The notes: generated by a model from the sequence alone, not told the origin. 34,662 nt of DNA from Limisphaerales bacterium (GCA_044225505.1 JBGAIN010000083.1:1-34662), one strand, 5' to 3'. Positions 7,280-33,202 are shown, counted from the stretch's first letter. Numbers and translations: made by a program.

Positions 7280-8994
7280 GGATTCTTGCTCTGACTCGTC
7301 GGGATTGGTTTGGCGGGACAACGCCCCGTTTGGCTGGCCTTCTGGTTGGTTTTTGCCTGGGGATCCGTGGTTTGGTTGATGCCACGGCGGCGGCCGACTC
7401 CTCGTCGCCCATCCGCTTGAGCGACGTGACCGCACAGACCGGGATCCACTTCGTCCACACGGACGGCAGCTCTGGGCGCCGCTACATTGTGGAGAACATC
7501 TGTTGCGGTATGGCCACGTTTGATTACAACGGCGATGACAAGACCGACATTTTGTTTTTGAACGGGGCGGCGTTGCCCGGAAGTCCAGCGGGTGCTCCTG
7601 CGCACAATGCTCTCTACAGGAATGACGGCAATTGGAAATTCACCGAGGTGACAGCACTGGCGGGTCTGAATGATTCGAGATATCACCTGGGTGTTTGTGT
7701 GGGGGATTATAACAACGATGGCTTTCCCGACGTTTACCTGAACAACTTCGGTCCCAATATCCTCTATCGAAACAATGGGAATGGCACTTTTACAGACGTA
7801 ACCGAAGCGGCAGGAGTGGCAAACGGAGATAAGGTTGGCGCCGGCGCCGCTTTTCTCGACATCGACAACGACGGAGATCTTGATCTGTTCGTTGGTAACT
7901 ACGTTGATTTCACGCTCGAGAAACATCAGACAAGGCATGTGAACGGATTCCCTGCTTACGTCGGACCCATGGCTTACGGTCCAGTCGCGTCGACCCTGTT
8001 CCGAAACAATGGTGATGGCACGTTCACCGATATTAGCCGCGAATCCGGGATTGCTGCTCACGTGGGAACTTGCATGGGGGTCGTTTGCGCAGACTACGAC
8101 GAAGATGGCGATACCGATATCATTGTCGGAAACGACGCTTTGGCAAATTTCGTATGGAAGAATAATGGCAAAGGTCATTTCGAGGAAGTGGGGCTACTCT
8201 CGGGCTTGGCCTACGATGGCCATGGGGTCGGGTTAGGAACAATGGGGGTGGAATGCGCCGACTATAATAACGATGGCCATCTCGATTTTCACATGACTTC
8301 CTATCAGAAACAGTGGGCCATTCTTTATCGGAATGTCGGCCGCGGGTTGTATGAAGATGTCACCCACATCACTGGGGCAGGGGCCGGGACCTTCAATCAA
8401 GTCACTTGGGGCTCCGGGCTGATCGATTTCGACAATGATGGAGATCGTGACCTTTACGTTGCGTGTGGACATTTGCAGGACAACGTCGAGTTGTGGGATG
8501 ACACCACCACTTACGAAGCCCGGAACCTTCTCCTGGAGAACACTGGCAAAGGCAAGTTTCGTGACATCTCCTCGCGCTCGGGGGATGGAATGGCGGTAAA
8601 ACGGAGCAGTCGTGGCGCAGCTTTCGACGATCTGGATAACGACGGCGATATCGACGTGGTGGTTCTGAACTCGCGGCGCGAACCAACCGTCCTCAGAAAC
8701 GATACACCTCGGACAAATCATTGGCTCCAAATCCAGCTCCGAGGTATTAAAAGCAACCGCGACGGCGTTGGCGCCAGGATCCAAGTAACGGCAGGGAATC
8801 TGACCTTGATGGATGAGGTGCATAGCGGACGGGGATACCAAAGCAGCTATAGTGCGCACCCTCATTTCGGTTTGGGGCCTCACAGCGTCGCCGATCGGAT
8901 TGAGGTTCGCTGGCTTAACGGCACGGTGGATATTCTGGACAAGGTGAAAGCGGATCAGCGCGTGACGATCATCGAGGGATCTTCGCGGCGTTGA
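7276..8994 (+). CDS. CRTAC1-family FG-GAP repeat / ASPIC-UnbV protein, paralog 2
   Basis: 572 aa, colinear with paralog 1. ATGA start/stop overlap at 7276-7279. Confidence 0.92.
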   Translation: MRILALTRRDWFGGTTPRLAGLLVGFCLGIRGLVDATAAADSSSPIRLSDVTAQTGIHFVHTDGSSGRRYIVENICCGMATFDYNGDDKTDILFLNGAALPGSPAGAPAHNALYRNDGNWKFTEVTALAGLNDSRYHLGVCVGDYNNDGFPDVYLNNFGPNILYRNNGNGTFTDVTEAAGVANGDKVGAGAAFLDIDNDGDLDLFVGNYVDFTLEKHQTRHVNGFPAYVGPMAYGPVASTLFRNNGDGTFTDISRESGIAAHVGTCMGVVCADYDEDGDTDIIVGNDALANFVWKNNGKGHFEEVGLLSGLAYDGHGVGLGTMGVECADYNNDGHLDFHMTSYQKQWAILYRNVGRGLYEDVTHITGAGAGTFNQVTWGSGLIDFDNDGDRDLYVACGHLQDNVELWDDTTTYEARNLLLENTGKGKFRDISSRSGDGMAVKRSSRGAAFDDLDNDGDIDVVVLNSRREPTVLRNDTPRTNHWLQIQLRGIKSNRDGVGARIQVTAGNLTLMDEVHSGRGYQSSYSAHPHFGLGPHSVADRIEVRWLNGTVDILDKVKADQRVTIIEGSSRR

Positions 8995-9265: not shown

Positions 9266-9718
9266 ATGTCTATGAGCTATCTCGCTGAAATAACTTTGCC
9301 GCTCGTTCGAGTGTTACGTCACTTTGCGACACTCCCGGCGCATCAACTTGCCGGCCAAGCGGCTAACATGGAGTTCTGGCGATCGGAAGTTGAGCATCGT
9401 CGACTGATCATTCGCTCGTATCGGGATCGGTTTCGCCGCATGCGCGATGCGGAGCAAGCCTACAGTAGAGAACACGGGTTGGGTTCTCCTTCGGTCGAGA
9501 GTTCTGGAGATTCCCCTTCGAACGAGATGGGCTCCCTCGCCCTGGCAGGGACTGGCACTCAAGATTCGGAACGACAAGAACTCCTCCGTGAACTCGATGC
9601 TGCATTCGGTGTTTTCTGGAATCGAATCACGCAATTCCAAGCTGGCCAGCTTAACGGCGCCGACCCGTCGGCGAACGTCACGCGTCCGGTCGCGGCTGAG
9701 GAAACGCCGTCGATTTAA
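9266..9718 (+). CDS. Hypothetical helical protein
   Basis: MSMSYLAEITLPLVRVLRHFATLPAHQLAGQAANMEFWRSEVEH...; protein-like amphipathic composition. Start at ATG 9266 or 9272 preferred over the track's 9197. Confidence 0.65.
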   Translation: MSMSYLAEITLPLVRVLRHFATLPAHQLAGQAANMEFWRSEVEHRRLIIRSYRDRFRRMRDAEQAYSREHGLGSPSVESSGDSPSNEMGSLALAGTGTQDSERQELLRELDAAFGVFWNRITQFQAGQLNGADPSANVTRPVAAEETPSI

Positions 9719-10131
9719 TCTGCCGCCGGGGCCTGCAGCTTGGCTGCGAACAGCGAAGGTTTCTCCTGTTGAAAAAACGTGGCTGGGGGTCGACAAACGT
9801 AAAGGCAAAGTCCACGCCGGGTCGGCGTCATCCGAAGCGCTTCGCCGGCATCGCAGGGCTCCAGAAGGGATAACTGCGCGTCGATGGACTCTTCACAAGA
9901 AGAGTTCTAAACTCCCTCGCAGAGCCGCCGCGCTCAGCCGCACGACCATCCGATGCGGCCAGCAGCGCTCGAATCCTTCGCGGTCGGGGTCGCACCGGCG
10001 GACATTCCTGCGGGATAAATCCCGCGATCGTGGTGGTCCGGTCAAGGTACGTTCGCTGCATCCTGATACCTGCTTCTTGGCTTCCACTGTCTCGGGTTTC
10101 GTGCTCTGCTTTAAACGTTCAGTGTTCAGAG

Positions 10132-10695
10132 ATGAGTGAACGCCGCCAACCTCAATCCGGGATACACCCGGTTCGCCAACGCTTGTTCATTTGCGGCTCC
10201 GACGAATGCACACCGTATCAGTACCGACAGATTTCGCACCTCCTGAAAGTCGGAAACCCAGGGGCTCCTCTTGCGAAACCGACCTGGTTTAACGGCCAGT
10301 ATCTGGAGTTGCGCTTTGGGGATGTCACCTCCGAGGCGGACGCGCGGCGGTGTCAATCCCAAGTCGCTGCCCAAGAGCAAATTCGCCAGGCGATGGAGTT
10401 CTTTCGCTCTGCTTCCGGTGTGTCCGAGTCCAGAATGCTGGTGACGTGCGAGTATGGCGCGTCTCGGTCGCCCGCACTGGCGTATCTTTTTATTGCCGAT
10501 GAGCTCGGGCCGGGCTTTGAATCCGAAGCCCTTCACCTGATGCTGCAGATTCGACCGGAGGCTGTCCCGAATGCTTGGGTGGTTCACTTGGGAGATGCTT
10601 TCCTGCAACGCCATGGTGCGTTACTTGAGCCCTTGAAAAAATTTCATTCTCGATTAAATGCGGAGCTGGCCGAAGGTTCGGCGGATCGTCCGTGA
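10132..10695 (+). CDS. Predicted protein-tyrosine/dual-specificity phosphatase-like protein
   Basis: CX5R P-loop LVTCEYGASRSPALA, upstream L.F.D general-acid segment (LRFGDV), and downstream IRPEAVPN. Start placed at ATG 10132. Confidence 0.8.
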   Translation: MSERRQPQSGIHPVRQRLFICGSDECTPYQYRQISHLLKVGNPGAPLAKPTWFNGQYLELRFGDVTSEADARRCQSQVAAQEQIRQAMEFFRSASGVSESRMLVTCEYGASRSPALAYLFIADELGPGFESEALHLMLQIRPEAVPNAWVVHLGDAFLQRHGALLEPLKKFHSRLNAELAEGSADRP

Positions 10696-12134: not shown

Positions 12135-12818
12135 ATGCGCTGGTTGTCTGCCCGATCCACTCTGGTGACTATCGTTATCCTGTTTTTTGCCGGATTCATC
12201 GGCACGACGGCTGCCTTCTATGACTGGCGTAGGGATGGCATCAAATCTGTCGATGCGCGGGATGCTGTCAAGACAGCAGCCAACGTTGCCCTGGCCATCG
12301 GTGTGTGCCTGACTTGTTTGCAGTTCTGGATCAGCTCGGAAGATCGATCGATCGAGAACCGGGAGCGGGAGGCGATGCTGAAAGTCGAGAACGAACAGCG
12401 CTGGGTGCAGAACCTGATTCGATTACACGAGCTTTGGCAGCGGGTCCTGGATAAGCAATCGGTGCGGGACGATTTGGAATATCTGGCGGAACATGCCTTG
12501 ACGGAAGCGGACTTCCTGAACATCGCTAACGGCCACGCTGTATCCACAGAGGTCGATGCCGCTCGATCTCGCCAGATGCGGACTCACTTCATCGCGGCTT
12601 TAAATGTCTTTGAGATCATCGTGGTGGCCTATGCCTATAAGTTTGCCGATTCCAAGCTGGTCGAACCGACGCTTATCGAGCCGACTCTTTACTACACAGA
12701 GAAGTTACGTGGCTTTGTCAAAGCTTGGAAACAGACCGGCCACAAGGGGTGGAAAGGCTTGGATGACTCGATGAAACTGAGCGCTGCCGGATCACCCGAG
12801 CGGCTCGGTGCCTCATGA
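12135..12818 (+). CDS. Membrane protein, DUF4760-like C-terminal domain (tentative)
   Basis: 227 aa. Two TM helices, a coiled segment, then ALNVFEIIVVAY....AD, resembling the LN.FE..A.....D motif of DUF4760. Confidence 0.6.
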   Translation: MRWLSARSTLVTIVILFFAGFIGTTAAFYDWRRDGIKSVDARDAVKTAANVALAIGVCLTCLQFWISSEDRSIENREREAMLKVENEQRWVQNLIRLHELWQRVLDKQSVRDDLEYLAEHALTEADFLNIANGHAVSTEVDAARSRQMRTHFIAALNVFEIIVVAYAYKFADSKLVEPTLIEPTLYYTEKLRGFVKAWKQTGHKGWKGLDDSMKLSAAGSPERLGAS

Positions 12819-13277: not shown

Positions 13278-13927
13278 GGCGTTCCTCGGTGTGGATCGAA
13301 GCGCGTCTGAGGGCGACGCCGGCCGGATCCGGGCGTCCGAAGGTCCGTCATCCGTCGAAAGCGAACGAGCGAGCGTTGCTACTCAGGGACCATTTTGTCA
13401 CCTGTCCTGGGAAGGTCTGGTTTCTGGGGGAAAATTGACGGTGGACCGTTCTATGGTTCGGTCAAATCAGTGTGCCAACAGCTTCCGGTCACGAGGAGAA
13501 CTTTGGAGGAGACTCTGTCGTAGCGTGTTTTAGCGTTCTCTGCGAGTTTAGAATCACCCAACAAACCTCTCGAATTGCAGTTTGAAGTGTCGAGAGAACC
13601 ACCCAGACTTGGTTGAGCTGGGTAGGCAGGGAATACGTTGGGTGAATTCGCCCAATCCAAGAGCAAATTGCTCTCAACGATCAATGGGGCACTTTCGATT
13701 CGTTAAATCATTGTCAACTAGGCGGTTAACGTTCGTGTCCGCAAATTGTGGACAGTGGCAAATCCTGGAGACTGCCCGGCTAAAGTAATCCCGCTCACGG
13801 TTTGGGAACGGACCGTTCCCAATTCTGTTGGTCGAGTACGGCTCTGGCTGCGATTTTTCTACAGACTTCAGCGATGGCTTGTTTCGAGCGAGCTCGCAGG
13901 TTATCCATAGCCGCTCACTATCCACGT

Positions 13928-14284
13928 ATGAATCTCGAAAAACTAAGCAGTTCCATTCTTCTGGTCTCGTTGGGGGTCGTCTTTCTATCTGGTTGCTCTA
14001 CCGCTACCATAGTTTCTATTTCCGGTTCACCAAACCTAGCGTATACGGGGCACTACCGAGGTACGCATGTCGATACCGACTTCCGAGGAACCGGCGGAAT
14101 GCGCTTGGATTTAGGGCGCCAAGCCCTTCACGAAATAGAGATTCAAAAGGTTGCGGCCGAACAGACTGCGCACCTGCAGATTCGTCAGGGACGTAAGGTC
14201 GTTGTCGACGCGACCGCCGAGCCAGGGGTGCGCGGTCTTCGGGTCCGCAATAGCGACGGTTGGAGAATCGAGCACACGCAGTGA
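13928..14284 (+). CDS. Putative lipoprotein
   Basis: MNLEKLSSSILLVSLGVVFLSGC: lipobox LSGC followed by a beta-rich domain. Start at ATG 13928. Confidence 0.7.
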   Translation: MNLEKLSSSILLVSLGVVFLSGCSTATIVSISGSPNLAYTGHYRGTHVDTDFRGTGGMRLDLGRQALHEIEIQKVAAEQTAHLQIRQGRKVVVDATAEPGVRGLRVRNSDGWRIEHTQ

Positions 14285-14462: not shown

Positions 14463-15326
14463 ATGCCAGGCAATCATCTTTCCGCTCGGGTTCAGAGGCC
14501 ACCGCGGCTTGGGTCGCACTTTGCTGGCTTCACGCTCATTGAGCTGTTGGTGGTCATTGCGATCATCGCGATTCTTGCAGGCCTACTATTGCCGGTCCTG
14601 GCAAAATCAAAGACCAAGGCTCATGGGATTCTCTGCCTGAGCAACCAAAAGCAGTTGGCCCTGGGTTGGATCATGTATGCGGACGACCATAACGACACTT
14701 TGGTTTGGAATGATCTCACCGCCACAGGTTCCGGATGGGTCCGAGGGATTTTGGATTACAACGGCAACAATCCCGATAACACCAACACGATCAACCTGAC
14801 GAATCCCATTTACGCGCTCTTGGCTCCCTATACCTCGGGGACAGCAGGCATCTACAAGTGTCCTGCCGATAAGAGCTCCGTGAAGACCAAAGGGGGAGTT
14901 TTTCGGCGAGTCCGCAGCCTATCGATGAGCCAAGCGATGAACTCCAAGGATGACTGGCTGAGTTATCTTACAAAGAAAAAGTACGTTGTCTTTCGGAAGA
15001 GCTCTGACTTGAATCTCATGGGCGCCGCGTTGGCCTACGTCTTTCTCGATGAGCATCCGGACAGCATCAATTTTGGCGATTTCGCTGTCGCGATGAATGA
15101 CGGGATTGCTCCGACTCGCATTTACATCGTCGATGTGCCCGCGAGCTACCACAACGGCGCCGGCGGCATCAGCTTTGCCGACGGGCATGCCGAGGTGCAC
15201 AAATGGAATGATGTTCGGACCCGACAACCAATCACGGGCAAGTATATGTGGGGATCCGTTCAGGCCTCGCCCAACAACCGGGATATGGTCTACCTGTCGG
15301 AGCATGCCTCGGTCTCAGCACCGTGA
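14463..15326 (+). CDS. Prepilin-type N-terminal cleavage/methylation protein with H-X9-DG motif (DUF1559-like)
   Basis: GFTLIELLVVIAIIAILAGLLLP; CLSNQKQL; YKCPAD; YHNGAGGISFADGHAE. Confidence 0.93.
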   Translation: MPGNHLSARVQRPPRLGSHFAGFTLIELLVVIAIIAILAGLLLPVLAKSKTKAHGILCLSNQKQLALGWIMYADDHNDTLVWNDLTATGSGWVRGILDYNGNNPDNTNTINLTNPIYALLAPYTSGTAGIYKCPADKSSVKTKGGVFRRVRSLSMSQAMNSKDDWLSYLTKKKYVVFRKSSDLNLMGAALAYVFLDEHPDSINFGDFAVAMNDGIAPTRIYIVDVPASYHNGAGGISFADGHAEVHKWNDVRTRQPITGKYMWGSVQASPNNRDMVYLSEHASVSAP

Positions 15327-16729: not shown

Positions 16730-18151
16730 CTAACTCCGTGGGGCTGCGGCATGCGCTTGGTCTCGACTCGAATCGCCGGGACGATTCTGAATGGTAAAAT
16801 TGAAGACTGCACCTTGATTGACTCGAGCCTCCGCCCAAATCGTGCCGCCATGCCGGACGACTATTTTCTGGCAGGTGGCGAGCCCTATTCCAGTGCCTTC
16901 GTAGTCATGCGCCGAGTGCAACCGTTCAAATGGTTGGAAAAGTTTGGAGGCGTATTTCATTTCGAAACCCGCACCATTGTCCCGCACAAAAAAGACTTGA
17001 AGCCCACCTTCACGCTGCTCGGAGCCGAACTCAATTCTCGCCGCGCCGGTCTTCGCTGTAAACTTCCACGCGTTGCCAATCAGATTTTGGAGCAGTATGC
17101 GAAGCAAGCCAGGGTCGCCTCGGACGATGCGCTCTGGACAGCAGACGAAATCAACTTGTCGTTTGCTTGAAGCCGCCTGCAACTCCGCGACTACCGTCGC
17201 TGCGATCACGGAGAGATCGACCGGCAGCCATTGGATGTCGCCTCGGGCAATTCGTGAAAGCTGCAACCAAGCTTCAATGAGTTCATCCATGCGCAGGGCA
17301 GCTCCCTGGATGCGAGAGAGGTGACTCAAGGCCGAGGAATTCAGCTCCGTGTGCGATTCCTCCGTGAGCAACCGGGCAAACCCCTCGATGCTCCGCAGTG
17401 GAGCGCGCAGATCATGAGCGACAGAATAACAGAAACTTTCAAGTTCCTGGTTGGCGGCCTGGAGGTCCGCCGTTCGTTCTACGACGCGCTGCTCCAGGGT
17501 CAGGTTGCTTTGGCGAAGCTCCTCCTGCAGGCGCCGCTGTTCTGTCACATCGCGCACCACCAGGGTGTAGCCAGCCTCATTCTCCATGGAGTCCCAACGA
17601 GAGACGGACGCCTCGGCGCAGAACTCCGTCGCATCCGAACGTCTGGCGGTGACCGTCCAGAGTCGTAGGCTGCCGGGAGCGCCCGAGACAGGCTCCGCCT
17701 GGGCCCCAGGAAAATCAGAGATAAACCGTCGGACATCCTTACCAAAGGCGTCTGGAGCAGAACAGCCGAACATCAGCTGCGCTGCGGGATTGAACACGAC
17801 AATCTCGTATTTGGCGTTGATGCCGACAATGGCATCCAGCGCGGATTCGATCAGGTTTGTCAGTTGCGCTTGGCTTGCTCGCAGTGCTTCCTGAATTCGA
17901 TGTTGTTTTCGAAGCTCGCGCCAGACGATCCAGGAGACGACCAAGGCGCTGGCAATCACGAAGAAGAGACCAACTAATCCCTTGTAAAGGACAGCCTGCT
18001 GCGGGGTCGCCGCCAGCCGCGCAGCCAGTCGTTCGAAAACAGCAAACCAAACGACGGCCGCGCCAAAGTAGAGCAGAGCTGCGGCCAGAGCTCGCAGCCA
18101 GCGCCGGTGTCTTCGGGCGGCTTGTCGCCGAATGTGATCAGGTTGAACCAT
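16730..18151 (-). CDS. Membrane PAS-domain sensor histidine kinase (HisKA + HATPase_c)
   Basis: Two TM helices; PAS (FNPAAQLMFG...VVRDVTE); H-box ELESFCYSVAHDLRAPL; N-box QNLIGNAWKF; G1/F/G2 boxes VRDNGAGF..LFQPFERLH..GTGIGLA. Confidence 0.95.
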   Translation of the reverse strand: MVQPDHIRRQAARRHRRWLRALAAALLYFGAAVVWFAVFERLAARLAATPQQAVLYKGLVGLFFVIASALVVSWIVWRELRKQHRIQEALRASQAQLTNLIESALDAIVGINAKYEIVVFNPAAQLMFGCSAPDAFGKDVRRFISDFPGAQAEPVSGAPGSLRLWTVTARRSDATEFCAEASVSRWDSMENEAGYTLVVRDVTEQRRLQEELRQSNLTLEQRVVERTADLQAANQELESFCYSVAHDLRAPLRSIEGFARLLTEESHTELNSSALSHLSRIQGAALRMDELIEAWLQLSRIARGDIQWLPVDLSVIAATVVAELQAASSKRQVDFVCCPERIVRGDPGLLRILLQNLIGNAWKFTAKTGAARIEFGSEQREGGLQVFFVRDNGAGFEMKYASKLFQPFERLHSAHDYEGTGIGLATCQKIVVRHGGTIWAEARVNQGAVFNFTIQNRPGDSSRDQAHAAAPRS

Positions 18152-18407
18152 TCTCGACTACTGCGACGGATTTCTTCCTTCCGGAGGATTCTCGTCGAGA
18201 ACAACGGTCTGGCAGACTATCTGGATCTAGTCCGGGGAGCTATCGGGGAAACCCTGGACTTGCGCTCGACGCGGAACCTTGACGGAGTGCCTTTGCTCGA
18301 AGGGCCGCAGCAAGCCAGTGACAGCGAACCTCGCCCGAACGGGAAATCGACGTTGAGACTCAGGGGTGCTCAGCGCTGCGCAGGCGTTCTCAAAAAGGGC
18401 CAGAAAC

Positions 18408-20258
18408 TCACAATGAATTGAGATAAGTACAGAGATCTTCGATGTCCTGAGGAGCGAGGTTGGACGTCTTGCCGTGACGATCCTCGCGATTCCGCGATGT
18501 TACGACGTCCCGAACGGTGACGGCTGAGCCGTCGTGAAGGTACGGTGCCGTTCGCCAGATTTCGAGGAGGGTGGGGGTATCAAGTTGATCTGCCGCGCGG
18601 TCGAGTTGTCCGCGGGTTCCCACGTCGTAGCGATTTAGATCGGTAAAGAGGCCTGGCGGATGGCAGTCCGCGCACCCGGCCGTTTGGAAGATCTTTTGGC
18701 CACGTTCCGCCGCTGGAGAGAGCTTGCCGTTGACCAGATTAGGGCTTGGGACCGGTCTGAGGCTCTTAAGATACTCGTCCATGGAATCGGCGACTTCCGC
18801 TGGCTGCTCTGTGAATAGAATGTGTCGAATTCCCGCACGCACCGCCATTTCTGCGGTTTCGCGCACCCCCAGGCTCATCGCCGGAGGGGTTCGGTGGACC
18901 AAGAGCAAACTTTTGTTGTTTTTCGGATTTCCCGTGCCGTCATTGAGCAAATCCCAGTTCAAGGCGTCCATGCGGGCATCTCCCGGATGACAGCTGGCAC
19001 AGCTTTGCCAGCCCTGAAAGCAAATGCTCGCATCATGAAAGTAAAATTCGCCCTTCCGAGCGAGCGTCATCGGCCTGGGCTCTGCAAGCGCGATGGATGC
19101 CGTAACCATTTTTTCTGAGATGATGCTTAGGGTGTCGGAAAAGTAATTCGCGGTAACGAGGAGTGAACCAACAAACGCGATGGCGCGCGGTCCTCGATCC
19201 GTGTTGGGCAATCGAACTCTATGACGCAGTCCCACGAGGAAGGAGAGGTCGTTGGGAACATCTGCTTGGCACCGCGAAGCGAACGAGTCGTTACTGGAGC
19301 TGGCGGCCGACGGGGTGGCGGGGATTTTGGCCAAACGAGCGCGTAGCGCTGGGAAGTCAATAACGCTGACCTCGTGTGTGCCAGCGTGTGCCACCGCTAA
19401 GGTCGCGCTATCCGAGGACCATGCAACGCCCCATGGATTGGCCGCACCGCTATCGACACTGTCGAGCAAGACGGTGTTGATTACTTCCAGGGTTTCCACG
19501 TCGATCAAAGTCCCGGCATTGGTGTTCATCCACCCTCGGTCCAATTGAGTGGCGGGCAGCGGGTAGCGGGAGAGGAGATGGCTGACAAACGCGTATTTGC
19601 CATCAGGAGAAAGTGCGATGTCGTTCAAAGAGCCGCTTCCGATGGGCAGGCGGAGCTCTTTCAGTAAAACTCCTTTGGCTACATCGAGGACAGAGACAAC
19701 GGCGGCGACATTGTCCGCGTCAGCGGCGCCATTGTGCAGGAGGTTGGCGACGAGGAGGTATCGCCCGTTTCGTGTCAGGGCTGATGCGACCGGTTCTCGT
19801 TGTACGGGCAGGCGCCGGCGCACTTCACGCGCGCTGAGGTCCAGCACACTCACATCATGGTTGAAACGATTGCAGACTAAGACCGTTTGTCCGTCCGGAC
19901 TGAACACGGGGGCCATGGCAGTGTGTCCGGCCGCCAGGCTCGCGACCACCTCGCCATCAGCAGTCTCGATGATCAAGACCTTGCTTTCCGGTCCAGCGCA
20001 GGTCACAGCTAGTTTGGATCCGTCAGCAGAAAGCGAGAGTCCCGTTGGAACGTTAGGTGTTTCGAAACAGGCAACGACCTTCCGGCTTGAGATGTCCACG
20101 CGCAGGACCTGATTCGCGGTCGCGCAGGCCACAAAGAGTGTCTTCCCGTCCCGGCCCGCGGCTAAAGCGGTGGGAGAGAGTGGCATTTCGGCGGCGGTGC
20201 ACTTCAGGAGGCCCCCCATGGAGGCCATCCAACCAAGAAGCAGAACTATGCGGTTCAT
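18408..20258 (-). CDS. Secreted YVTN-type beta-propeller fused to a diheme cytochrome c peroxidase-like domain
   Basis: 616 aa. Signal peptide; propeller repeats (SPDG..LV.N....VSV.D); two CxxCH motifs (CASCH, CADCH); CcP/MauG-type TPTL...RTAPYLHDGS. Confidence 0.9.
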   Translation of the reverse strand: MNRIVLLLGWMASMGGLLKCTAAEMPLSPTALAAGRDGKTLFVACATANQVLRVDISSRKVVACFETPNVPTGLSLSADGSKLAVTCAGPESKVLIIETADGEVVASLAAGHTAMAPVFSPDGQTVLVCNRFNHDVSVLDLSAREVRRRLPVQREPVASALTRNGRYLLVANLLHNGAADADNVAAVVSVLDVAKGVLLKELRLPIGSGSLNDIALSPDGKYAFVSHLLSRYPLPATQLDRGWMNTNAGTLIDVETLEVINTVLLDSVDSGAANPWGVAWSSDSATLAVAHAGTHEVSVIDFPALRARLAKIPATPSAASSSNDSFASRCQADVPNDLSFLVGLRHRVRLPNTDRGPRAIAFVGSLLVTANYFSDTLSIISEKMVTASIALAEPRPMTLARKGEFYFHDASICFQGWQSCASCHPGDARMDALNWDLLNDGTGNPKNNKSLLLVHRTPPAMSLGVRETAEMAVRAGIRHILFTEQPAEVADSMDEYLKSLRPVPSPNLVNGKLSPAAERGQKIFQTAGCADCHPPGLFTDLNRYDVGTRGQLDRAADQLDTPTLLEIWRTAPYLHDGSAVTVRDVVTSRNREDRHGKTSNLAPQDIEDLCTYLNSL

Positions 20259-20259
20259 G

Positions 20260-22776
20260 TTATTTCAATTCAGCGTCGAATACTTTCTGGCCCACGCGGA
20301 GCGCCGCTCGGTTCTTCTGCTCGCGCAGCCGGCGCGCCTCATACTTCGCCTCTCGCCACTGGTCGAGAGGATTGGGGTGAAACCCGGGCGCATCGGCCTC
20401 GGGCGTATCGGTCAAGAGAGTTGCACCCGAACGGATCAGGGCGAGGGCTTCGCGGTAGAGTGGGTCGGTGCTGGAACCGAATCCAGATAAACACGGACTC
20501 AGTTCTGGCCGGTCGAAGCTAATTTTAGGACCGCGATTGCTCGCATGGGTGGCGGTCTGGCGCAGAGGAATTCCGGTGAGTTGTTCGAGCCGGCCGAGTT
20601 GTGCGTCGTTGAGAGGCGACCGGCCGGCCAAATTGTTCGGATATGCGCATGCGTAACTTGGGTAATAGGGCGCGTTAAGGTCGATCCAAGTGACGATTCG
20701 CTCCCAATCTTCTGGTGAAAGTGTGCTGCGGCAGCGCGGTTGCTCCCTAAGGACAGCCACGAGTTTGCTGGCGTGCGCTCCCCAGCTGTACGGTTTCTGC
20801 GTTTCGGACGGCCCAGCCCCGACCACCGTAAGGTAATTCTTTCTCCAGAGCTCGTTATAGGAAGCGTTGAACACCAAGTCGCGATCCGCGGCCAAATTGA
20901 GAACATGGCCTGCGGTCGTATTGAAGTCGTGACAACGAACACAGTGTCGATCAAACACCGGTTGCACTTCCGCGAGGTAGTTGAAATCGCGCGCGGGTCC
21001 GTGCCAACCCTCAAGTGTCGCAGGCGGCTTGTGGAACGCGGTCTGACCTCTGTTGTTCACCGGGCTCGGTGCCAGGCGTCGATCTTCATGGCACCCGATG
21101 CAACTCGATCGTTCGCCCGATTGTACCATCACACCACTCCGCATCGACTGGACCATGAGGCCGTCCTGATCGAGCAATTGGAAATAGACGAACTTGTCCG
21201 GGGGAACCGTAAAATTCGCGGACCCGTCGTCGGCCACGGGCACGGTCCCTAAAATCCGTTTGTTGTTGAAGTCATGCCAGTTCATCGCGGGCGCTTCCTG
21301 GCCTTGGCCCCCCCATGCTGGCCGGGTCCAGAATCGCTTTTCCGGAGATTCTACCACCCGTAGCCATTTGATCGTGCCGCGGCGGACGCTCGCCATCTCG
21401 ATGCCCTGATAGACATCCTGGACGTAGAAGTGCCCCGGTTCGTTGTCATAGTTCCGGCGCGAGGGAATAGTGGGCGGCCGCATTCGAGGTGCCACAGGCA
21501 TGGGATCGAAGCAACCTGGCGCTTCCGCATGAATTAAGAGTTCATTTCCAAATCGATCGAGAAGTTCGATGGCCATCTCGTCCCCTTGGCCCGTCATTTT
21601 CGCGGCCAGAAAGTATTTCTCTCCAAGTGGAAACGGATCTTCGTATTTTGCTTTCACGCGAGTGAAAGCATCGAAGATCTCCCAGCCAGATTGTCGAATA
21701 AGATTGGTCGCACTAGACGGCCACATTTGCAGGACAGGCGTGGCACCGTCCATGCCCAAGCGTCGGTCAATCAGGGCTAACGCTCCCCAAGGCCGGTCGT
21801 GACACGAGCCAAAGACGCAGATGGCCAATTCGCTGTCCGGGATCGCGCGCGCATCAATGACCGCCCCGGGCGCCGCCGTGTTGTTTCCCCAGAAGGCATG
21901 ATGTGCTGTCCCGTCCGGGTTGGCCGTCCAGAGCGCTTGCGCATCGCCGAAATTTCGATCCACGTATTCCCATCGATCGTAAAGAATTCGTCCATCTGGC
22001 ATGAGTGAGCCATGCCCTTCGAAAAGCGTGCTTTTGCCAATCTGGTGAATGTTGGAGCCGTCACGTTCCATGCGAAACAGATTGGCCATGACATGGCGAT
22101 TGCACATGCAGTACTTCGGCTCGCGAGTTGACGAGAAGGCGATGCTGCCGTCCGCTAAGTAAAACGGGTCTAGGTCATCGACGTCCGTGGCAAAAGTCAG
22201 TTGACGAAGCTCCGTCCCGTCAGCCCGAATCTCATAAATATGATAACTGGCGGTGACATTCGTCCGCATGGAAAAGAGAATATGGGCGCCGTCAAAGTCG
22301 ACCTCCGGATCACGCAGCACGCCGTCCGCCGTTTCTAAAAGCGTCGTGACTTTGCCCCCTTTGGCCAGATCGATCTGCTTCAATGCGGCGCCAGGCGTAA
22401 ACGAACCGTCGTTATATTCGTGCTGGGCGGCGGGGAAAAAAGTGGCTGTGTTATGGTGGTCTGGACGGTATTGCTTGCGCACGACGAACAGGATGGGATG
22501 CGCCGAGACCAGTGGATTTGCTAAAAGCGCTTCGCTTTCCAGCTGCCTGTACTCGCGTTCTGCCGAGGTTGCTGGGCTGACGCCCGGCGAATGCAATCGC
22601 GATTCGATCCGGTCGAGTCTTTCAAGAAACCTTGGCCCGCCCGGATAACTTTCTCCAAAAGTGACGCTGAGATCTTTGATAGCTGCGCGAAGCGAACCGG
22701 GCTCAGGTGCCGCCAAGCTGAGGAATGATAGCCCCATCCCAACGCTCGAGATCAAGACCCAGCGTGTGATATTCAT
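20260..22776 (-). CDS. Hydrazine synthase alpha-subunit-like protein (TolB-like propeller + HZS-alpha middle domain + diheme c domain)
   Basis: 838 aa. Signal peptide; LRQLT...DLDPFYLADG.IAFSSTR; DGRILYDRWEYVDR; LWTANPDGT; LGTVPVADDGSANFTVP....YFQLLD.DG..VQSMRS.....GE..SCIGCHE; VQPVFDRHCVRCH. Confidence 0.85.
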   Translation of the reverse strand: MNITRWVLISSVGMGLSFLSLAAPEPGSLRAAIKDLSVTFGESYPGGPRFLERLDRIESRLHSPGVSPATSAEREYRQLESEALLANPLVSAHPILFVVRKQYRPDHHNTATFFPAAQHEYNDGSFTPGAALKQIDLAKGGKVTTLLETADGVLRDPEVDFDGAHILFSMRTNVTASYHIYEIRADGTELRQLTFATDVDDLDPFYLADGSIAFSSTREPKYCMCNRHVMANLFRMERDGSNIHQIGKSTLFEGHGSLMPDGRILYDRWEYVDRNFGDAQALWTANPDGTAHHAFWGNNTAAPGAVIDARAIPDSELAICVFGSCHDRPWGALALIDRRLGMDGATPVLQMWPSSATNLIRQSGWEIFDAFTRVKAKYEDPFPLGEKYFLAAKMTGQGDEMAIELLDRFGNELLIHAEAPGCFDPMPVAPRMRPPTIPSRRNYDNEPGHFYVQDVYQGIEMASVRRGTIKWLRVVESPEKRFWTRPAWGGQGQEAPAMNWHDFNNKRILGTVPVADDGSANFTVPPDKFVYFQLLDQDGLMVQSMRSGVMVQSGERSSCIGCHEDRRLAPSPVNNRGQTAFHKPPATLEGWHGPARDFNYLAEVQPVFDRHCVRCHDFNTTAGHVLNLAADRDLVFNASYNELWRKNYLTVVGAGPSETQKPYSWGAHASKLVAVLREQPRCRSTLSPEDWERIVTWIDLNAPYYPSYACAYPNNLAGRSPLNDAQLGRLEQLTGIPLRQTATHASNRGPKISFDRPELSPCLSGFGSSTDPLYREALALIRSGATLLTDTPEADAPGFHPNPLDQWREAKYEARRLREQKNRAALRVGQKVFDAELK

Positions 22777-23047
22777 TAGATTAGGCGGGAAGCGTATCCT
22801 GTCTCGTTAAAATTAGGAAGAGCGATCTGCCATTCGTGTGCAAAACTTTCGCCTGCGCCTCCAGGCGGGCGCTTTTCCCGGTTAACTGTAGCCCGGGGTG
22901 CACGCCGGTCAGAAACGCATCGGCCGAGTCAATGTGCAATGCAACGCTGCAACCTGACGGACAGAGTGACTTGCAGCGGTTGGAGTGTGTCGCGGGACAC
23001 CGACTGGAACAGCGCAGCCAAACCTGCACGTGCGTGCGTGACCCTTC

Positions 23048-23076
23048 TTGACCATCAGACGGTGCGTTCCTATAAA
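23048..23076 (+). promoter_or_regulatory. Putative sigma70 promoter of the radical SAM gene
   Basis: TTGACC (23048-23053), 17-bp spacer, TATAAA (23071-23076). Confidence 0.55.
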
Positions 23077-23172
23077 ATGCCTCCAAGGCGGCGGTTAAAT
23101 CGTTCGCTCGCGGATTGAAAAGCCATAATGCCAGTTCAGGCGTTACGAGGTCGGCCACTGCGATCAACGTTC

Positions 23173-24465
23173 ATGGCGGACCGTAAACTCACTCTCTTGC
23201 TGATCACGGTATCTTCACCGGGAATTCTCAGGCGGAGACGTTCTCGCGTGCTGAATTTTCAGCAAGTTACGATGCCATATCTCGCCGCCTTCGTTCCGCC
23301 CCATTGGGAGGTTTTGCACGTTGACGAGGCGGTGAACGCGGTGGATTTGACCACGCGCGCCGATTTGGTGGGTCTCACGTTTCATACGCCGAGTGCGCCT
23401 CATGCGTATGCATTGGCGGCTCGCTTCCGAGCGCGGGGCATCCCCGTGGTGCTCGGTGGACCGCATGTCACTTTGGTTTCCGATGAGGCTGAAAAACACG
23501 CCGATGTGGTTTTTGTCGGAGAAGCAGAAGACTCATGGCCTCAGTTCCTGCGGGACTTTGAGTCTGGGCACTTTCAACGCCGCTACCAGTCAAATGCGCT
23601 GCCGTCCTTAGAGGCCGTCCCCGCGGCGCGGAAGGAACTGTTTCATCGACGCGACCATGCCGCGGGAGTTCTGTTTGCCACACGAGGGTGCGCTTATCGA
23701 TGCGACTTTTGCAGTATTGCAGTCATGTATCGAAGTACGCTCCGCAAGCGTCCTGTCGAGTCTGTCTCCCGGGAGTTTGGGGCTTTCCGAGGCAAAGTGA
23801 TCATCCTCTGGGATGACAATCTCAGCGGCGATATGGCCTACGCCAAAGAGTTGTTCCGGGCGCTGGCGCCCTATCGGAAATGGTGGAGCAGCCAAGTCAG
23901 CATCCAAGCGTCAGCGGACGAGGAGTTTCTGGAGTTGGCTGCCGCTAGCGGGTGTAAGCAACTGTTTGTGGGCCTCGAATCTGTTAGTCAGGCTAGCCTG
24001 GATGGGGTTTCAAAAGGATTTAATCGGGTGCAACAGTATGCTGAGGCGATTGCGCGCATACATTCTCATGGGATCGCGGTTCAGGCTGGGCTGGTTTTCG
24101 GCTTCGATCACGACACGCCGTCCGTTTTTGATGAGACCTTGGAGTTCCTCGAATCCACAGGAGTGCAAAATGCGACCTTTAACATTTTGACGCCCTTCCC
24201 TGGAACGCCGCTATATTACCGTTTCGAAAAAGAAGGAAGGATTCTGACGCGAGATTGGACCAAGTATAACGGTCGAACCGACGTTGTCTTCCAGCCCCGG
24301 CAGTTGAGCGTGCCGGCCCTGCTGGAAGGCTTCCGCGAAATCAACCGGCGCTTTTATTCGTGGCGGAGCATTGCCAAGCGGTTAAGCTGCTCTCCGGTGC
24401 AATGGCCATGGGCTCTTCCTTTGAACTTGGCCTATGCCTTCGCCCTTCGGCGCAATGCAGATTGA
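23173..24465 (+). CDS. B12-binding-domain radical SAM protein
   Basis: N-terminal cobalamin-binding domain (ADLVGLT...PVVLGGPHVT...VFVGEAE); CxxxCxxC motif TRGCAYRCDFC; GLES; LTPFPGTPLY. Start at ATG 23173. Confidence 0.93.
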   Translation: MADRKLTLLLITVSSPGILRRRRSRVLNFQQVTMPYLAAFVPPHWEVLHVDEAVNAVDLTTRADLVGLTFHTPSAPHAYALAARFRARGIPVVLGGPHVTLVSDEAEKHADVVFVGEAEDSWPQFLRDFESGHFQRRYQSNALPSLEAVPAARKELFHRRDHAAGVLFATRGCAYRCDFCSIAVMYRSTLRKRPVESVSREFGAFRGKVIILWDDNLSGDMAYAKELFRALAPYRKWWSSQVSIQASADEEFLELAAASGCKQLFVGLESVSQASLDGVSKGFNRVQQYAEAIARIHSHGIAVQAGLVFGFDHDTPSVFDETLEFLESTGVQNATFNILTPFPGTPLYYRFEKEGRILTRDWTKYNGRTDVVFQPRQLSVPALLEGFREINRRFYSWRSIAKRLSCSPVQWPWALPLNLAYAFALRRNAD

Positions 24466-30189: not shown

Positions 30190-33018
30190 CTATCTGGCCA
30201 ACCGGTAATACCGAGCTTGATCAACGAATGGGACGATGAATGGACTTTCAGCGCCTTTGACCTGGCTCCATCGCGAGGCACTCTCCAGCGTGGTGGCGCT
30301 TTCGAGTTGAACTGTCGGATCCCGCCAATAGAGCACGCCTTCCGCTCCGAATCTGGCCATTTGCAGCCGCGGCGGTGCAGGGACTAGCACGCCGACTAGT
30401 TCTAGATCGAAGCTAACATCCGACGAAGTTGTTGATTCCTGATGAATTTCGACGGCGATGGTGTTTTCCCCAGCCTGCAGGCCCTGAGCGGTGAGCGTAA
30501 CGCTATCGATGGAGTTTTCTCCGGTGGACAACGCTAGAGTCGTGAAAGTGATTTGGGCTGGCGAGGGCGGAAGGTTGGCGCTGCGGAATATCTCCGCGCC
30601 GTTCAGATAGACTACGCCCGCGTCATCGCGCAACAGGCGCATGTTCATGGAGGCGATCACCGACGGATCCGCCACCGTAAACGTCTTGCGAAAGTAGTAA
30701 GTAATGTTGGTCGTGCCCAACGTCCCAACGCGGCGAATTTGCGTCGCTTCATCATTGTCGCCAAACCCGAGTTGCGCTGGCCCCTCGAGCCAGCTGCTCT
30801 CGTCGAACGCACTGGCGCGCCAGGCTGTTCCTTGATCCGATCCCTCATCGAGATAGTGCCAGGACGCGTTATACGGAATCAGCAGGATGTCCGACCTGTT
30901 GGTGTCCGCTGGCAGCAGAAAAAGCTGCGCGGCCGTGGTGATTTCCGCGCCAACCGGCGATTGCATGGAGACACGCGCCAATCCTGCCTCGGGCAAAGTT
31001 GCATTCGCCACGGTTAAGACTTTCACCGTCTCCCCTGGTCGGAAATCCAGATGGCCCATCGCGAGTGTCCCGCTTGGTGTGTCGACAGTGTAGTCCACTT
31101 GAACGTCGTGAGTCGTGAATGAGCTCAGCCGAATCGGGATGCCGTTGGCGACGTTCGCGCGGGTCACAGGATCCCAATTGGCGAATCCGATTCCGACTGC
31201 GGCGGCGCGGGGTGTGCCCATGAATGGAAGCAAGCGGGCGGCATCGCGGGTCGGATCCCAAACCAGATTGTCCGGATGATAGGCGTTCGATGCAGAAAAG
31301 TGATTTCCGTGGAAGCTCATGCGGTTGCTTCGATAATCCCATGTGTCATCCCAAGGCCGTCCGAACACGTCGCGATAGTTGTGAATTAGGATCGAGTTCG
31401 TGACGGTCAGGAATCCTGTCTTTAATCCCAAGCCGGTCGTCCCTTGATAATTATCGCCATAACGGGCGCCGACCGAATTCGCCAGGCTCAATAGACGTTC
31501 GGCGTAACAGAGCGGGGAATTGGTGCCAGTGCTCCACCCGCATTCAATACCTTGGCCCGAGTTGATCAGGATCGAATCATAGGTCAAAGTCTGCCGTTCA
31601 CCCCCGGACCAGGCGAGCGCCTCATGCAATGCCGACTCTACCCAGCAATTCGTCACGACCACGCTCCCGGCTCCGCCCGAGCCGGAGTCGATCGCGTCGT
31701 CTTTGGCAAATCCCAAGAGACTGTCTTTGAGAATGTGGGTGCCCGTTGTGAAATAGATCGCGTCGTAGTCTGCATCGGCAATGGTCGCGTTATAAACGCC
31801 GTCGATTGCAGGGAACTCGATGACCGCGGAATTGTTCACGATGACCGTGCCGCCTTCATACTCGCCTCCGGTGATCGCGCGCTGCAAGAGGCAATGATCG
31901 TAAGTGACTTCTGCATCGTAGCCGTTGCCAATCTGGCCGGCATTGTTGATCAAAAAGCAGTTGGTCAAGAATGCTTTTGCGCCCGAATGAACCAGGAGCA
32001 GCGCTTGCTCGCTGCGATGACTAACCCCTGGCGAGAAATTGAAACTGGCAGAAGCTCCTGCGCCCGTCATGATCGTCCCGTTCGCGATCAGTTCCGCAGA
32101 ACTGCCGCGCATCAAAAAACCTCCCCAAGCTCCTTCCGGGTGTTCGGGAGCGACGTGTTTTTGCGCCGTCAGGACCACGGGAGCTTCGCGTGTGCCCAGG
32201 ATCTCGATGCGGCCCGTATTCGTAATGTTCACTGACGGGTCAAGTAGGACGACCGTGCCAGCGCCGATGGTCAAGGAGTTGCCCGCTAAGACCGTGATGC
32301 TGTTGGTCACGTGAATGCGGGAGTTCGTCGGCCAGTTTGCCTCTGCCGGCAAGATTCCTGAAACAACCTGCCACGCTGGCATCGAGTCGATCTGAATGGA
32401 CTTGGCCGCAGAAAGCATTTGAATGCGCGCGTCTAAACTCAAAATTCCCGCCGTTGTTGCTGGCGCCATGAAGGCATGCCCAACGCCGCGGCGCAACGGC
32501 AGCACCAGACCCGCCGCGATGACGGTGCCGTTGACCCGGCGGGCATTGCCCGGACCATCATCCACCCAGGCAATCATCGGAATCTCCAGACCCGCGGGGT
32601 ATTCCTGCGGCGCGACGAGAAACAGTTTCGCCTCAGCGAATTCTTCGCGCCCCGAAGGAATCAGCGGGTACGGAGTCCATTCAATCAGTCCAACTTCCGG
32701 ACTTCCTCGCCGTGACGAAACGACAATGAATCGAACGGCCTGCCGCGCGCTTGACCCGTCCGATGCTTGCGTCCGTTGCACGACCAGATCGTAGTAATCC
32801 ATCGCGGTCACAACTTGCGGCACGCCCGCCGCGACCGGCTTGTCATTAAGCATCACCTCATACGTGAATCCTTCCACGGTCGGAACGGTGAAGGTGGCGG
32901 TATCGGTATAGACCGTGCGATCTGTGACGCCAACGATCAAAGAAACCTGCGCATGCAAACACCTTGTGAAAGCCAAGAGAATAACGAGCGCGAGTTTCAA
33001 TCTCAGGTAACTAATCAT
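30190..33018 (-). CDS. Secreted right-handed beta-helix protein with Calx-beta-like and galactose-binding-like domains and a C-terminal domain
   Basis: Signal peptide from ATG 33018 (MISYLRLKLALVILLAFTRCLHA). LTIGAGTVV...GT...PVV.T...WGG; DDAIDSG beta-helix repeats; GHLDFRPGETVK (Calx-beta-like); WHYLDEGSDQGTAWR...TYYFRKTF...RDDAGVVYLNG...SSDVSFDLEL. The track start 33258 overlaps the divergent gene. Confidence 0.82.
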   Translation of the reverse strand: MISYLRLKLALVILLAFTRCLHAQVSLIVGVTDRTVYTDTATFTVPTVEGFTYEVMLNDKPVAAGVPQVVTAMDYYDLVVQRTQASDGSSARQAVRFIVVSSRRGSPEVGLIEWTPYPLIPSGREEFAEAKLFLVAPQEYPAGLEIPMIAWVDDGPGNARRVNGTVIAAGLVLPLRRGVGHAFMAPATTAGILSLDARIQMLSAAKSIQIDSMPAWQVVSGILPAEANWPTNSRIHVTNSITVLAGNSLTIGAGTVVLLDPSVNITNTGRIEILGTREAPVVLTAQKHVAPEHPEGAWGGFLMRGSSAELIANGTIMTGAGASASFNFSPGVSHRSEQALLLVHSGAKAFLTNCFLINNAGQIGNGYDAEVTYDHCLLQRAITGGEYEGGTVIVNNSAVIEFPAIDGVYNATIADADYDAIYFTTGTHILKDSLLGFAKDDAIDSGSGGAGSVVVTNCWVESALHEALAWSGGERQTLTYDSILINSGQGIECGWSTGTNSPLCYAERLLSLANSVGARYGDNYQGTTGLGLKTGFLTVTNSILIHNYRDVFGRPWDDTWDYRSNRMSFHGNHFSASNAYHPDNLVWDPTRDAARLLPFMGTPRAAAVGIGFANWDPVTRANVANGIPIRLSSFTTHDVQVDYTVDTPSGTLAMGHLDFRPGETVKVLTVANATLPEAGLARVSMQSPVGAEITTAAQLFLLPADTNRSDILLIPYNASWHYLDEGSDQGTAWRASAFDESSWLEGPAQLGFGDNDEATQIRRVGTLGTTNITYYFRKTFTVADPSVIASMNMRLLRDDAGVVYLNGAEIFRSANLPPSPAQITFTTLALSTGENSIDSVTLTAQGLQAGENTIAVEIHQESTTSSDVSFDLELVGVLVPAPPRLQMARFGAEGVLYWRDPTVQLESATTLESASRWSQVKGAESPFIVPFVDQARYYRLAR

Positions 33019-33202
33019 GAGGACGGAACTTCGGGAAGGCGCATCTTCCTTTGATCTACTCCAAAAACTCTTCCGCCATGACCAAAGTGGAAACGTGTTG
33101 GGGTTGACGAGGGCAATGGAAAGGCCCTTCAAACCGTGATGGCCGAATGAATTTGCTGGCGCTTGTAGCCAAAGGCGCTTTTCTTGTGTCATATCCTTGC
33201 TT

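Follow-up and report, generated by a model that had tools for sequence, protein, structure and literature searches.

Hydrazine synthase (HZS) from bacteria that oxidize ammonium anaerobically (anammox) is represented by the Kuenenia structures 5C2V and 5C2W, in which a three-domain alpha subunit with two haem c motifs (HzsA) is combined with a seven-bladed beta propeller carrying an inserted loop (HzsB) and a di-haem gamma subunit (HzsC). The beta and gamma subunits are reported to be fused in Scalindua. Here, we analysed a 34,662-nucleotide (nt) stretch of DNA from a Limisphaerales bacterium (GCA_044225505.1 JBGAIN010000083.1:1-34662), hereafter called the window, which contains two adjacent genes, A and B. 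Gene A encodes an HzsA-like protein, and gene B encodes an HzsB-like propeller fused to an HzsC-like di-haem domain. The source bacterium belongs to the Verrucomicrobiota and originates from wastewater.

Relatives of the HZS genes have been described outside the anammox bacteria in at least three papers. Dalcin Martins et al. 2023 (PMC10732223) found, in Phycisphaerae UBA1845, a fused hzsBC-like gene immediately preceded by an hzsA-like one and proposed a broad family of HZS-like enzymes with other substrates. In PMC11828985, a 'previously undescribed HzsA' was reported from ten phyla in cold-seep metagenome-assembled genomes (MAGs), six of them Verrucomicrobiota MAGs; Sec signals, C-terminal helices, fused beta-gamma subunits and predicted complexes were described, and the genes were read as anammox potential. 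Hagglund et al. 2025 (PMC12758564) assigned co-located homologues to clades I-IV, found that Tyr591 and other residues had been lost, and rejected the anammox reading. In its account of clades I-III, an FG-GAP/CRTAC1 gene lies between or beside the pair, the beta-gamma protein has extra haems (clades I and III), the alpha protein lacks haem II (clades II and III), and Trp occupies the gamma-His144 position, as does the Trp between the two haems of CcP/MauG proteins. No published tested function was found for any non-anammox HZS-like member.

The pair in the window resembles these non-anammox clusters in that the alpha-like gene is directly upstream of the fused beta-gamma-like gene and alpha-Tyr591 is lost, and it has the putative signal peptides and the C-terminal helical tail described in PMC11828985. 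However, no FG-GAP gene lies between A and B, B has no extra N-terminal haems, and haem II of the alpha protein is kept; therefore, the pair falls outside clades I-III as they are described in PMC12758564, from which it also differs in having Ser rather than Trp at the gamma-His144 position. It fits clade IV, described there as having neither the FG-GAP gene nor ATP-binding cassette (ABC) binding proteins, a comparison made by description only. The pair adds one member to a family that is very large and already published, and its novelty was overrated in a preliminary description made from the sequence alone, because comparable pairs, including some from Verrucomicrobiota, are described in PMC11828985, PMC12758564 and PMC10732223. 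What is new here is the residue-level exclusion of HZS for this clade, the Cys/His pocket motifs, the A-B fusions and the mostly unlinked pairing of the two genes.

Domain architecture and homology of A and B

Gene A (20260..22776; 838 residues) was defined by its open reading frame (ORF), a Pfam HZS_alpha match and a fold match, and gene B (18408..20258; 616 residues) by its ORF, NCBIfam and PDB matches and a structural model. Both genes, and all of their features given below, are on the minus strand, A before B. At the junction TAA-C-ATG (20256..20262), the stop codon of A (20262-20260) is separated from the start codon of B (20258-20256) by a single C (20259). The preliminary description of two secreted genes 1 nt apart was correct as to the ORFs, the gap and, judged by eye, the Sec-like N-termini, both of which consist of a short basic segment and then a hydrophobic one; however, the span it gave for the junction, 20258-20262, omitted two bases of the ATG.

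Protein A consists of a signal-like N-terminus, helices, a six-bladed TolB/PD40-like propeller, an HZS_alpha middle domain, a cytochrome c domain and a C-terminal helical tail. The propeller (approximately residues 92-445; 21442..22503) was delimited from the strand pattern of the model, TolB matches and invariant columns. The middle domain (residues 467-564; 21085..21378) matched the full 98-position Pfam model PF18582 with 109.2 bits (cut-off 26.6; E-value 1.5e-31), and an identical span was obtained in the genome search. The translation contains the haem-I motif CIGCH (residues 559-563; 21088..21102), followed by EDRR, and the haem-II motif CVRCH (residues 612-616; 20929..20943) in the cytochrome c domain. 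Among solved structures, HzsA was the sole match of A, with E-values of 6.4e-6 for the single sequence and 6.5e-15 for a 47-sequence profile. In a Foldseek search, the AlphaFold model of A, with a predicted local distance difference test score (pLDDT) of 81.7, matched 5c2v_A (Kuenenia HzsA) best, at an E-value of 6.8e-25 over 794 columns (template modelling score, TM, 0.54-0.59), and the next match was TolB (6.4e-10). PF26549 was assigned to many A homologues, and all clusters retrieved from the Atlas with the A propeller as query were of the 'hypothetical', PD40 or HZS_alpha kind.

Protein B begins with a seven-bladed YVTN-type propeller (approximately residues 28-392; 19083..20177), identified by the Foldseek match to 5c2v_B. 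The propeller contains the loop LPATQLDRGWMNTNA (residues 234-248; 19515..19559), which aligns to the loop of HzsB (beta 245-260) that is reported to come near the HZS tunnel and is part of the predicted A-B interface. This loop is conserved as LPxTQL[D/E]RGWMNTNA and is similar in length to the HzsB loop; the two Glu residues of the latter align to Gln238 and Asp240 of B, and the alignment is ambiguous as to the position of its Mg-binding Glu253. The di-haem CcP/MauG/HzsC-like domain (residues 397-616; 18411..19070) was recognized from Pfam, NCBIfam and PDB matches and from the alignment. Translation and alignment placed in it a gamma-I-like haem motif, CASCH (residues 420-424; 18987..19001), and a gamma-II-like motif, CADCH (residues 529-533; 18660..18674), and the residues around the first haem are densely invariant among B homologues.

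Matches of B covered both HzsB and HzsC. The NCBIfam models hydrazine_BC, hydrazine_beta and hydrazine_gamma gave E-values of 3e-46, 2.4e-28 and 2.2e-26, respectively, and in the PDB the single sequence matched 5c2v_C (1.6e-25) and 5c2v_B (2.4e-23). With a B profile, the values were 2.7e-39 for 5c2v_B and 2.6e-38 for 5c2v_C but only 4.5e-9 for di-haem peroxidases; the archaeal YVTN surface-layer propeller 1l0q_A outscored both HZS chains. The model of B (pLDDT 80.2) had 5c2v_B as its top Foldseek match (E-value 5.7e-25; TM 0.85 on the target). The match to Pfam CCP_MauG (PF03150) was marginal, with 28.9 bits against a cut-off of 25.6 at positions 7-100 of 149. In common with the CcP/MauG/MbnH proteins, B shows a CcP-like fold with two CxxCH motifs and the conserved segment PY(L/F)HDG; it differs from them in its fusion to a propeller, its much greater similarity to HzsC and Ser462 at the inter-haem Trp position.

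Thus, A and B are true but distant relatives of HZS, homologous to all three of its subunits in both sequence and fold, and the 5C2V chains are the best structural matches of both models. The domain inventory of the preliminary description (an alpha-like protein plus a fused beta/gamma-like protein), its two CxxCH motifs per protein and its CIGCHEDRR, YCMCNRH and CHDRP motifs were all recovered, and the HZS-alpha and CcP_MauG models that it proposed for checking both produced matches. Two CcsA-type cytochrome c maturation genes are present in the source genome.

Loss of HZS-specific residues

The scores of A and B against the equivalog models of HZS are far below the cut-offs: 44.6 bits for A against NF052339 (HzsA; cut-off 800), and 157.9, 99.3 and 92.7 bits for B against NF052342, NF052340 and NF052341 (cut-offs 1250, 560 and 625). 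In comparison, true HzsA was found in 14 of 301 Planctomycetota genomes with 1518-1606 bits, and these genomes yielded nothing else at E<=1e-30. A search of the 9.0-Mb source genome with the HZS families detected no HZS-grade gene, the best hydrazine_BC score being 143 bits.

For a comparison of residues, four anammox hzs operons from those Planctomycetota genomes were aligned with the A and B families. The position of alpha-Tyr591, the proximal ligand of haem alpha-I, is occupied by Arg567 in A, in agreement with the earlier remark that no Tyr follows the first haem motif. The sequence C-x-G-C-H-D-G-S-Y is present in all four HzsA proteins, whereas the 12 aligned A-family rows have C-x-G-C-H-(E/D)-(D/E)-(R/H)-(R/K). 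Alpha-Cys303, which ligates Zn together with His587 of the haem motif, aligns to Asn299 of A in a WGNN loop, in which WGN is invariant and Asn299 nearly so. According to PMC12607021, on the current mechanism of HZS, this Cys touches the haem-I site, and PMC12758564 reports that it is also absent from Scalinduaceae. The region of alpha-His772, the distal ligand of the bis-His haem alpha-II, has a deletion of 8-9 residues in A and contains no conserved His.

Similar losses were found in B. The position of gamma-His144, between the haems, is taken by Ser462, which follows an invariant Met461; the clade-I-type paralogue of the source genome has Trp there. The loop SSLDRVCGR, which provides Asp168 and the third thioether of gamma-Cys165, is deleted in all 10 aligned B-family rows, and inspection of the sequence of B detected no Cys between its two haem motifs. 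Moreover, inserts of anammox HZS (approximately 50 residues in alpha and 30 in gamma) are missing from A and B, the gene order alpha to beta-gamma is the reverse of that in anammox operons, both proteins have Sec-type N-termini, which we list as a further difference, and the A propeller has invariant Cys/His motifs of its own. Judged from these sub-cut-off scores and lost residues, the A-B pair is not a hydrazine synthase, and the preliminary view that hydrazine synthesis is unlikely is borne out.

Clade-specific motifs in the propeller of A

An alignment of 47 A homologues (60-71% identity) revealed a series of propeller motifs that are conserved and mostly invariant: DHHNTATFFP, EPKYCxCNRH, FEGHG, YDRWEYVDRNFGDAQ, WGNN and SCHDRPWGA. 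None of them was found in HzsA in the alignment. In DHHNT (residues 106-110; 22447..22461), His107, His108, Asn109 and Thr110 are invariant and Asp106 is nearly so. Cys223, Cys225 and His228 of the YCMCNRH loop (residues 222-228; 22093..22113) and the CHDRP segment (residues 325-329; 21790..21804) are invariant in all 47 homologues. The Cys/His motifs are missing from the five A-like paralogues in the same genome, in which other residues stand at these positions; the His at position 326 is kept in three of the five.

We infer that these Cys/His loops line the haem-I pocket and set its specificity, because alpha-Cys303, a residue of the haem-I site, aligns to the WGNN loop. Invariance within the clade combined with differences between paralogues is a pattern as would be expected of a specificity site.

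Possible association between A and B

Complex prediction was performed for residues 440-838 of A, a part that excludes its propeller, and residues 24-616 of B, with alignments prepared for this analysis and alongside three controls. The A-B score was 0.64, whereas the best control reached 0.00; this mark was reached by 116 of 157 solved complexes and by 2 of 215 mismatched pairs. Agreement of contacts between runs was at least 73%, and the pLDDT of the partner was at least 88. The predicted interface involves residues 449-453, 556-560 and 565-584 of A and residues 229-246, 264-268, 326-339 and 434-445 of B. It would thus bring together the haem-I loop of A (556-584), the beta loop of B (229-246) and the segment beside the first haem of B (434-445), as the alpha haem-I loop, the beta loop and the segment beside gamma haem I are joined in anammox HZS.

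Support independent of the solved HZS structure is provided by A-B fusions. Among six long representatives checked, picked from 150 listed, two (P0273 and P0318) combine both proteins in one chain, in which A precedes B. Their B parts are 42% identical to B over 556 columns and 35% identical over 603 columns, respectively, and the signal region of B is outside both matches. In a different composite, P0265, a polygalacturonase-like region (PglB model, 3.2e-13) forms the C-terminal part of an A-like protein, which may be a hint of carbohydrate substrates.

The two genes also occur together in genomes. In 301 genomes of the window's phylum searched at E<=1e-20, A-like genes were found in 59 and B-like genes in 64; 57 genomes have both, two only A and seven only B. 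All four genomes from other phyla with an A orthologue that were examined in this way also have a B-like gene. B directly follows A in eight loci from several phyla. Conservation of the pair, a check proposed in the preliminary description, was found at the level of genomes (57 of 59), but direct adjacency was not general (8 of 64 loci). Pairing of A and B is mostly unlinked in the genome, and adjacency is the minority state.

Possible function of the pair

Most likely, the pair forms an HZS-style, two-subunit, four-haem periplasmic enzyme. As a whole, an alpha/beta-gamma complex of A and B with the build of HZS and another chemistry is our best explanation, one to which we would give slightly less than an even chance. 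A and B would be exported to the periplasm, where each would take up two c-type haems, and would assemble into a complex built like anammox HZS. In the predicted assembly, the loop after the haem-I motif of A is clamped by propeller loops of B and by the segment next to its first haem motif. The exposed second haem of B may exchange electrons with a soluble carrier, by analogy with HZS, while the first haem may bind and convert a small molecule, possibly peroxide, O2 or an N-oxide. The product or redox equivalents would then cross the interface to haem I of A, although the direction of electrons and any channel are conjectural, and reach a pocket probably formed by the clade-specific Cys/His-rich propeller loops. 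The reaction would be other than hydrazine synthesis. The four CxxCH motifs, the predicted interface, with its clear separation from the controls, and the co-occurrence in the family are consistent with the four-haem periplasmic complex put forward in the preliminary description. None of the three outcomes that it listed as refuting was observed, since the HZS-alpha domain was matched, an interface was predicted and the two genes co-occur in other genomes.

Several observations weigh against this explanation. The prediction of the complex, from which the A propeller was left out, may echo the solved structure 5C2V and would then reflect likeness only. The co-occurrence counts come from related genomes that are not independent, and no statistical test is attached to them. 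Of the 64 A loci in which 2 kb or more of sequence follows A, only 8 have B immediately downstream; any B is within reach in only 13 of 80 A loci, or in 8 of the 29 that extend 9 kb or more to either side. A-like genes are more numerous than B-like ones (6 to 4 in the source genome). Such a surplus, together with rare linkage, implies that many A-like proteins have no dedicated partner. Ser462 of B is neither the His of HZS nor the Trp of CcP/MauG, so transfer between the haems is unproven. Finally, it is only the alignment of alpha-Cys303 with WGNN that places the Cys/His loops near haem I, and no conserved neighbour points to a substrate.

The substrate of MauG is pre-methylamine dehydrogenase, and that of MbnH is MbnP. 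By analogy, B could be a MauG-like maturase or a shared redox partner that, perhaps aided by a radical SAM protein, oxidizes or cross-links invariant Cys, His and Trp residues of the A propeller into a cofactor or metal site, A being the working enzyme. The membership of the di-haem domain in the CcP/MauG superfamily, the invariant YCxCNRH, CHDRPW and several Trp in A, and the excess of mostly unlinked A-like genes, as expected of a shared helper, are in keeping with this idea, as is the repeated presence of B12-binding radical SAM genes next to A (in the window and in 6 of 80 loci), since this family has only four matches in the source genome. We nevertheless consider it rather unlikely: Ser462 takes the place of the Trp on which MauG chemistry depends, the fusions and an interface centred on haem I of A rather than on its propeller fit a permanent complex better, and the six radical SAM loci, whose proteins are 28-32% identical to that of the window, probably represent one lineage.

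A related but more specific proposal, which we regard as unlikely, is that His107/His108, Cys223, Cys225, His228, His255, Cys325 and His326 build, against haem I of A, either a metal site or a protein-derived cofactor made by cross-linking. This would create a two-centre active site that B feeds or matures with the assistance of the recurring Rid/chorismatase-like and B12-radical-SAM genes. If true, the two-centre site would be of a kind undescribed for any haem enzyme, and the paralogues with varied pockets would be many periplasmic oxidoreductases for different, probably carbohydrate-derived, substrates.

It is distinctly unlikely that A and B act independently, B as a peroxidase-like or electron-transfer protein and A as a separate haem protein with incidental adjacency. 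The neighbourhoods of A do vary widely, and B is missing from the surrounding 10 kb in 21 of the 29 loci that extend 9 kb or more to either side, but the 1-nt spacing, the A-then-B order in several phyla, the fusions, the co-occurrence and the predicted interface all argue for a connection. A non-catalytic periplasmic electron conduit or scaffold would agree with four haems, two propellers of a type typical of protein-protein contact and the lack of recognizable catalytic residues of a known enzyme. This is quite improbable, however, because the dense invariant polar, Cys and His motifs in the A propeller and around the first haem of B resemble active sites and the differences between the pockets of paralogues suggest substrate specificity. 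A real hydrazine synthase with anammox potential, as such genes are read in PMC11828985, would match in domain inventory, haem count and predicted assembly but is extremely improbable given scores far below the cut-offs (true HzsA has at least 1518 bits), the changes Tyr591 to Arg, Cys303 to Asn and His144 to Ser, the deletion of the His772 region and the Cys165/Asp168 loop, the lack of any HZS-grade match in the source genome, and the rejection of the same idea for related clades in PMC12758564.

Distribution and paralogues

With 8,000 candidates scored per search, at least 3,802 A-like and at least 6,286 B-like proteins were detected at E<=1e-10. When clusters built at 50% identity were searched with an A profile, 17,689 were matched at E<=1e-3, 5,604 at 1e-10 and 2,088 at 1e-30, and species genomes contained 567 matched stretches, 552 of which encode a relative. 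In quick trees, A and B of the window each fell in a clade of their own, with SH-like approximate likelihood ratio test (SH-aLRT) supports of 98 and 99. HzsA grouped with a paralogue of the source genome (on contig C117, see below) and was further from A than from this paralogue, a grouping that long branches make unsafe. Five genomes of the window's phylum (G197, G287, G257, G299 and G026) had 33-72 first-look A-like against 12-21 B-like candidates, with three or four per genome scored; this surplus suggests large lineage-specific expansions of alpha-like genes.

For the comparison of loci, we used the best 80 A loci, which are 54-72% identical to A, with phyla taken from record titles. The titles name Verrucomicrobiota, Armatimonadota, Hydrogenedentota, Planctomycetota, Kiritimatiellia, Lentisphaerae and Sumerlaeota, corresponding to at least seven phyla. 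Four records titled Nitrospirales or Nitrospiraceae (L028, L038, L047 and L069) and one titled Bathyarchaeia (L057), labels that are given here as recorded, contain A orthologues of 57-63% identity, and two of them, L028 and L057, also have B and a Rid-like gene. The orthologues with Nitrospirota or archaeal labels are due to either binning error or gene transfer.

The source genome itself contains six HZS_alpha loci. On contig C117, a Rid-like gene, an A-like gene (679 residues, one haem), an FG-GAP/UnbV_ASPIC gene, a B-like gene (1044 residues, ten CxxCH), a gene for an unknown protein and genes for two periplasmic binding proteins form a cluster with the clade-I-type layout reported across clades I-III in PMC12758564. 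The Rid-like gene, just upstream of this A-like gene, is an ORF of 192 residues (L097:13405-13983, minus strand). On contig C328 (L098, 171-11699, minus strand), genes for an IclR protein, an A-like protein with two haems, an FGE-sulfatase-like protein, a Mal s 1-like propeller, an unknown protein, Dak1, Dak2, a DeoC aldolase and a B-like protein are arranged on one strand; this row links an HZS-like pair to genes of triose and sugar metabolism.

Genomic context

Clustering of 880 ORFs from the 80 loci and the window showed no neighbour that is kept in a majority of the loci. Recurrent genes were limited to B, a second A-like gene, a radical SAM gene and a Rid/chorismatase-like gene; GFO_IDH_MocA and sulfatase genes are present near A without a fixed position. 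Of the 13 loci with a B gene, 7 (L028, L050, L057, L061, L068, L084 and L086) have the Rid/chorismatase-like gene after B; its product, of 376-393 residues, gave weak matches to FkbO/Hyg5-chorismatase and to the Rid family. One more locus, L039, is grouped with the loci that have this gene. No such gene was found in the window.

A gene for a 445-residue B12-binding radical SAM protein, recognized with Pfam (23128..24465, plus strand), is the divergent neighbour of A in the window. Relatives that are 28-32% identical to this protein and contain DUF4070 directly follow A in six loci (L009, L010, L011, L020, L026 and L081), and the source genome, of approximately 9 Mb, has only four matches to this family. 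The radical SAM protein is a possible, weakly supported associate of A.

As noted in the preliminary description, other genes of the window encode carbohydrate and redox proteins, with Pfam matches to GFO_IDH_MocA, 3-keto-disaccharide hydrolase, glucuronyl esterase, F5/8 type C and Laminin_G_3; a PAS histidine kinase gene (16730-18151) is downstream of B. The histidine kinase and the GFO and 3-keto-disaccharide genes were considered as functional partners of the pair and rejected, because their position is not conserved. On the plus strand, a gene for a TPR protein (4174-5559) is followed by two tandem FG-GAP plus UnbV_ASPIC (CRTAC1-like) genes (5561-7279 and 7276-8994). These lie 11 kb from the A-B pair and belong to the same family as the gene between the alpha-like and beta-gamma-like genes of the C117 cluster and of clades I-II in PMC12758564. 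A prepilin-type N-methylation motif is present in the ORF at 14463-15326. No Pfam match at E<=1e-5 was obtained for four plus-strand ORFs (9447-10139, 10030-10695, 12135-12818 and 13802-14284) or for a 1022-residue ORF on the minus strand (30190-33258).

A scan of 18000-23300 for promoters and terminators gave results at chance level (2 against 1.6 expected and 7 against 5.5 expected). An identical 271-nt contig from a biofilm metatranscriptome library corresponds to 20185-20455 and bridges the A/B junction; this is a weak hint that A and B work together, as DNA may occur in such libraries. A 15.5-kb contig from an activated-sludge run covers 18000-23200 with 14 differences. Matches in two other runs (X19 and X20) are only 151-250 nt long, and in a third (X18) most of the stretch is uncovered, which makes it uninformative on expression.

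Implications

Genes of this kind have already been counted as markers of anammox: PMC11828985 reads them as anammox potential in ten phyla, and PMC12758564 rejects this reading on the grounds of residues. The window provides a clear case in which every tested HZS-specific catalytic residue is missing, and its source bacterium occurs in activated sludge and in bioreactors, settings that are commonly surveyed by means of hzs genes. A first biochemical study of this family could start from the A-B fusions, the presumed Cys/His pocket of this clade and the helper genes that recur beside it.

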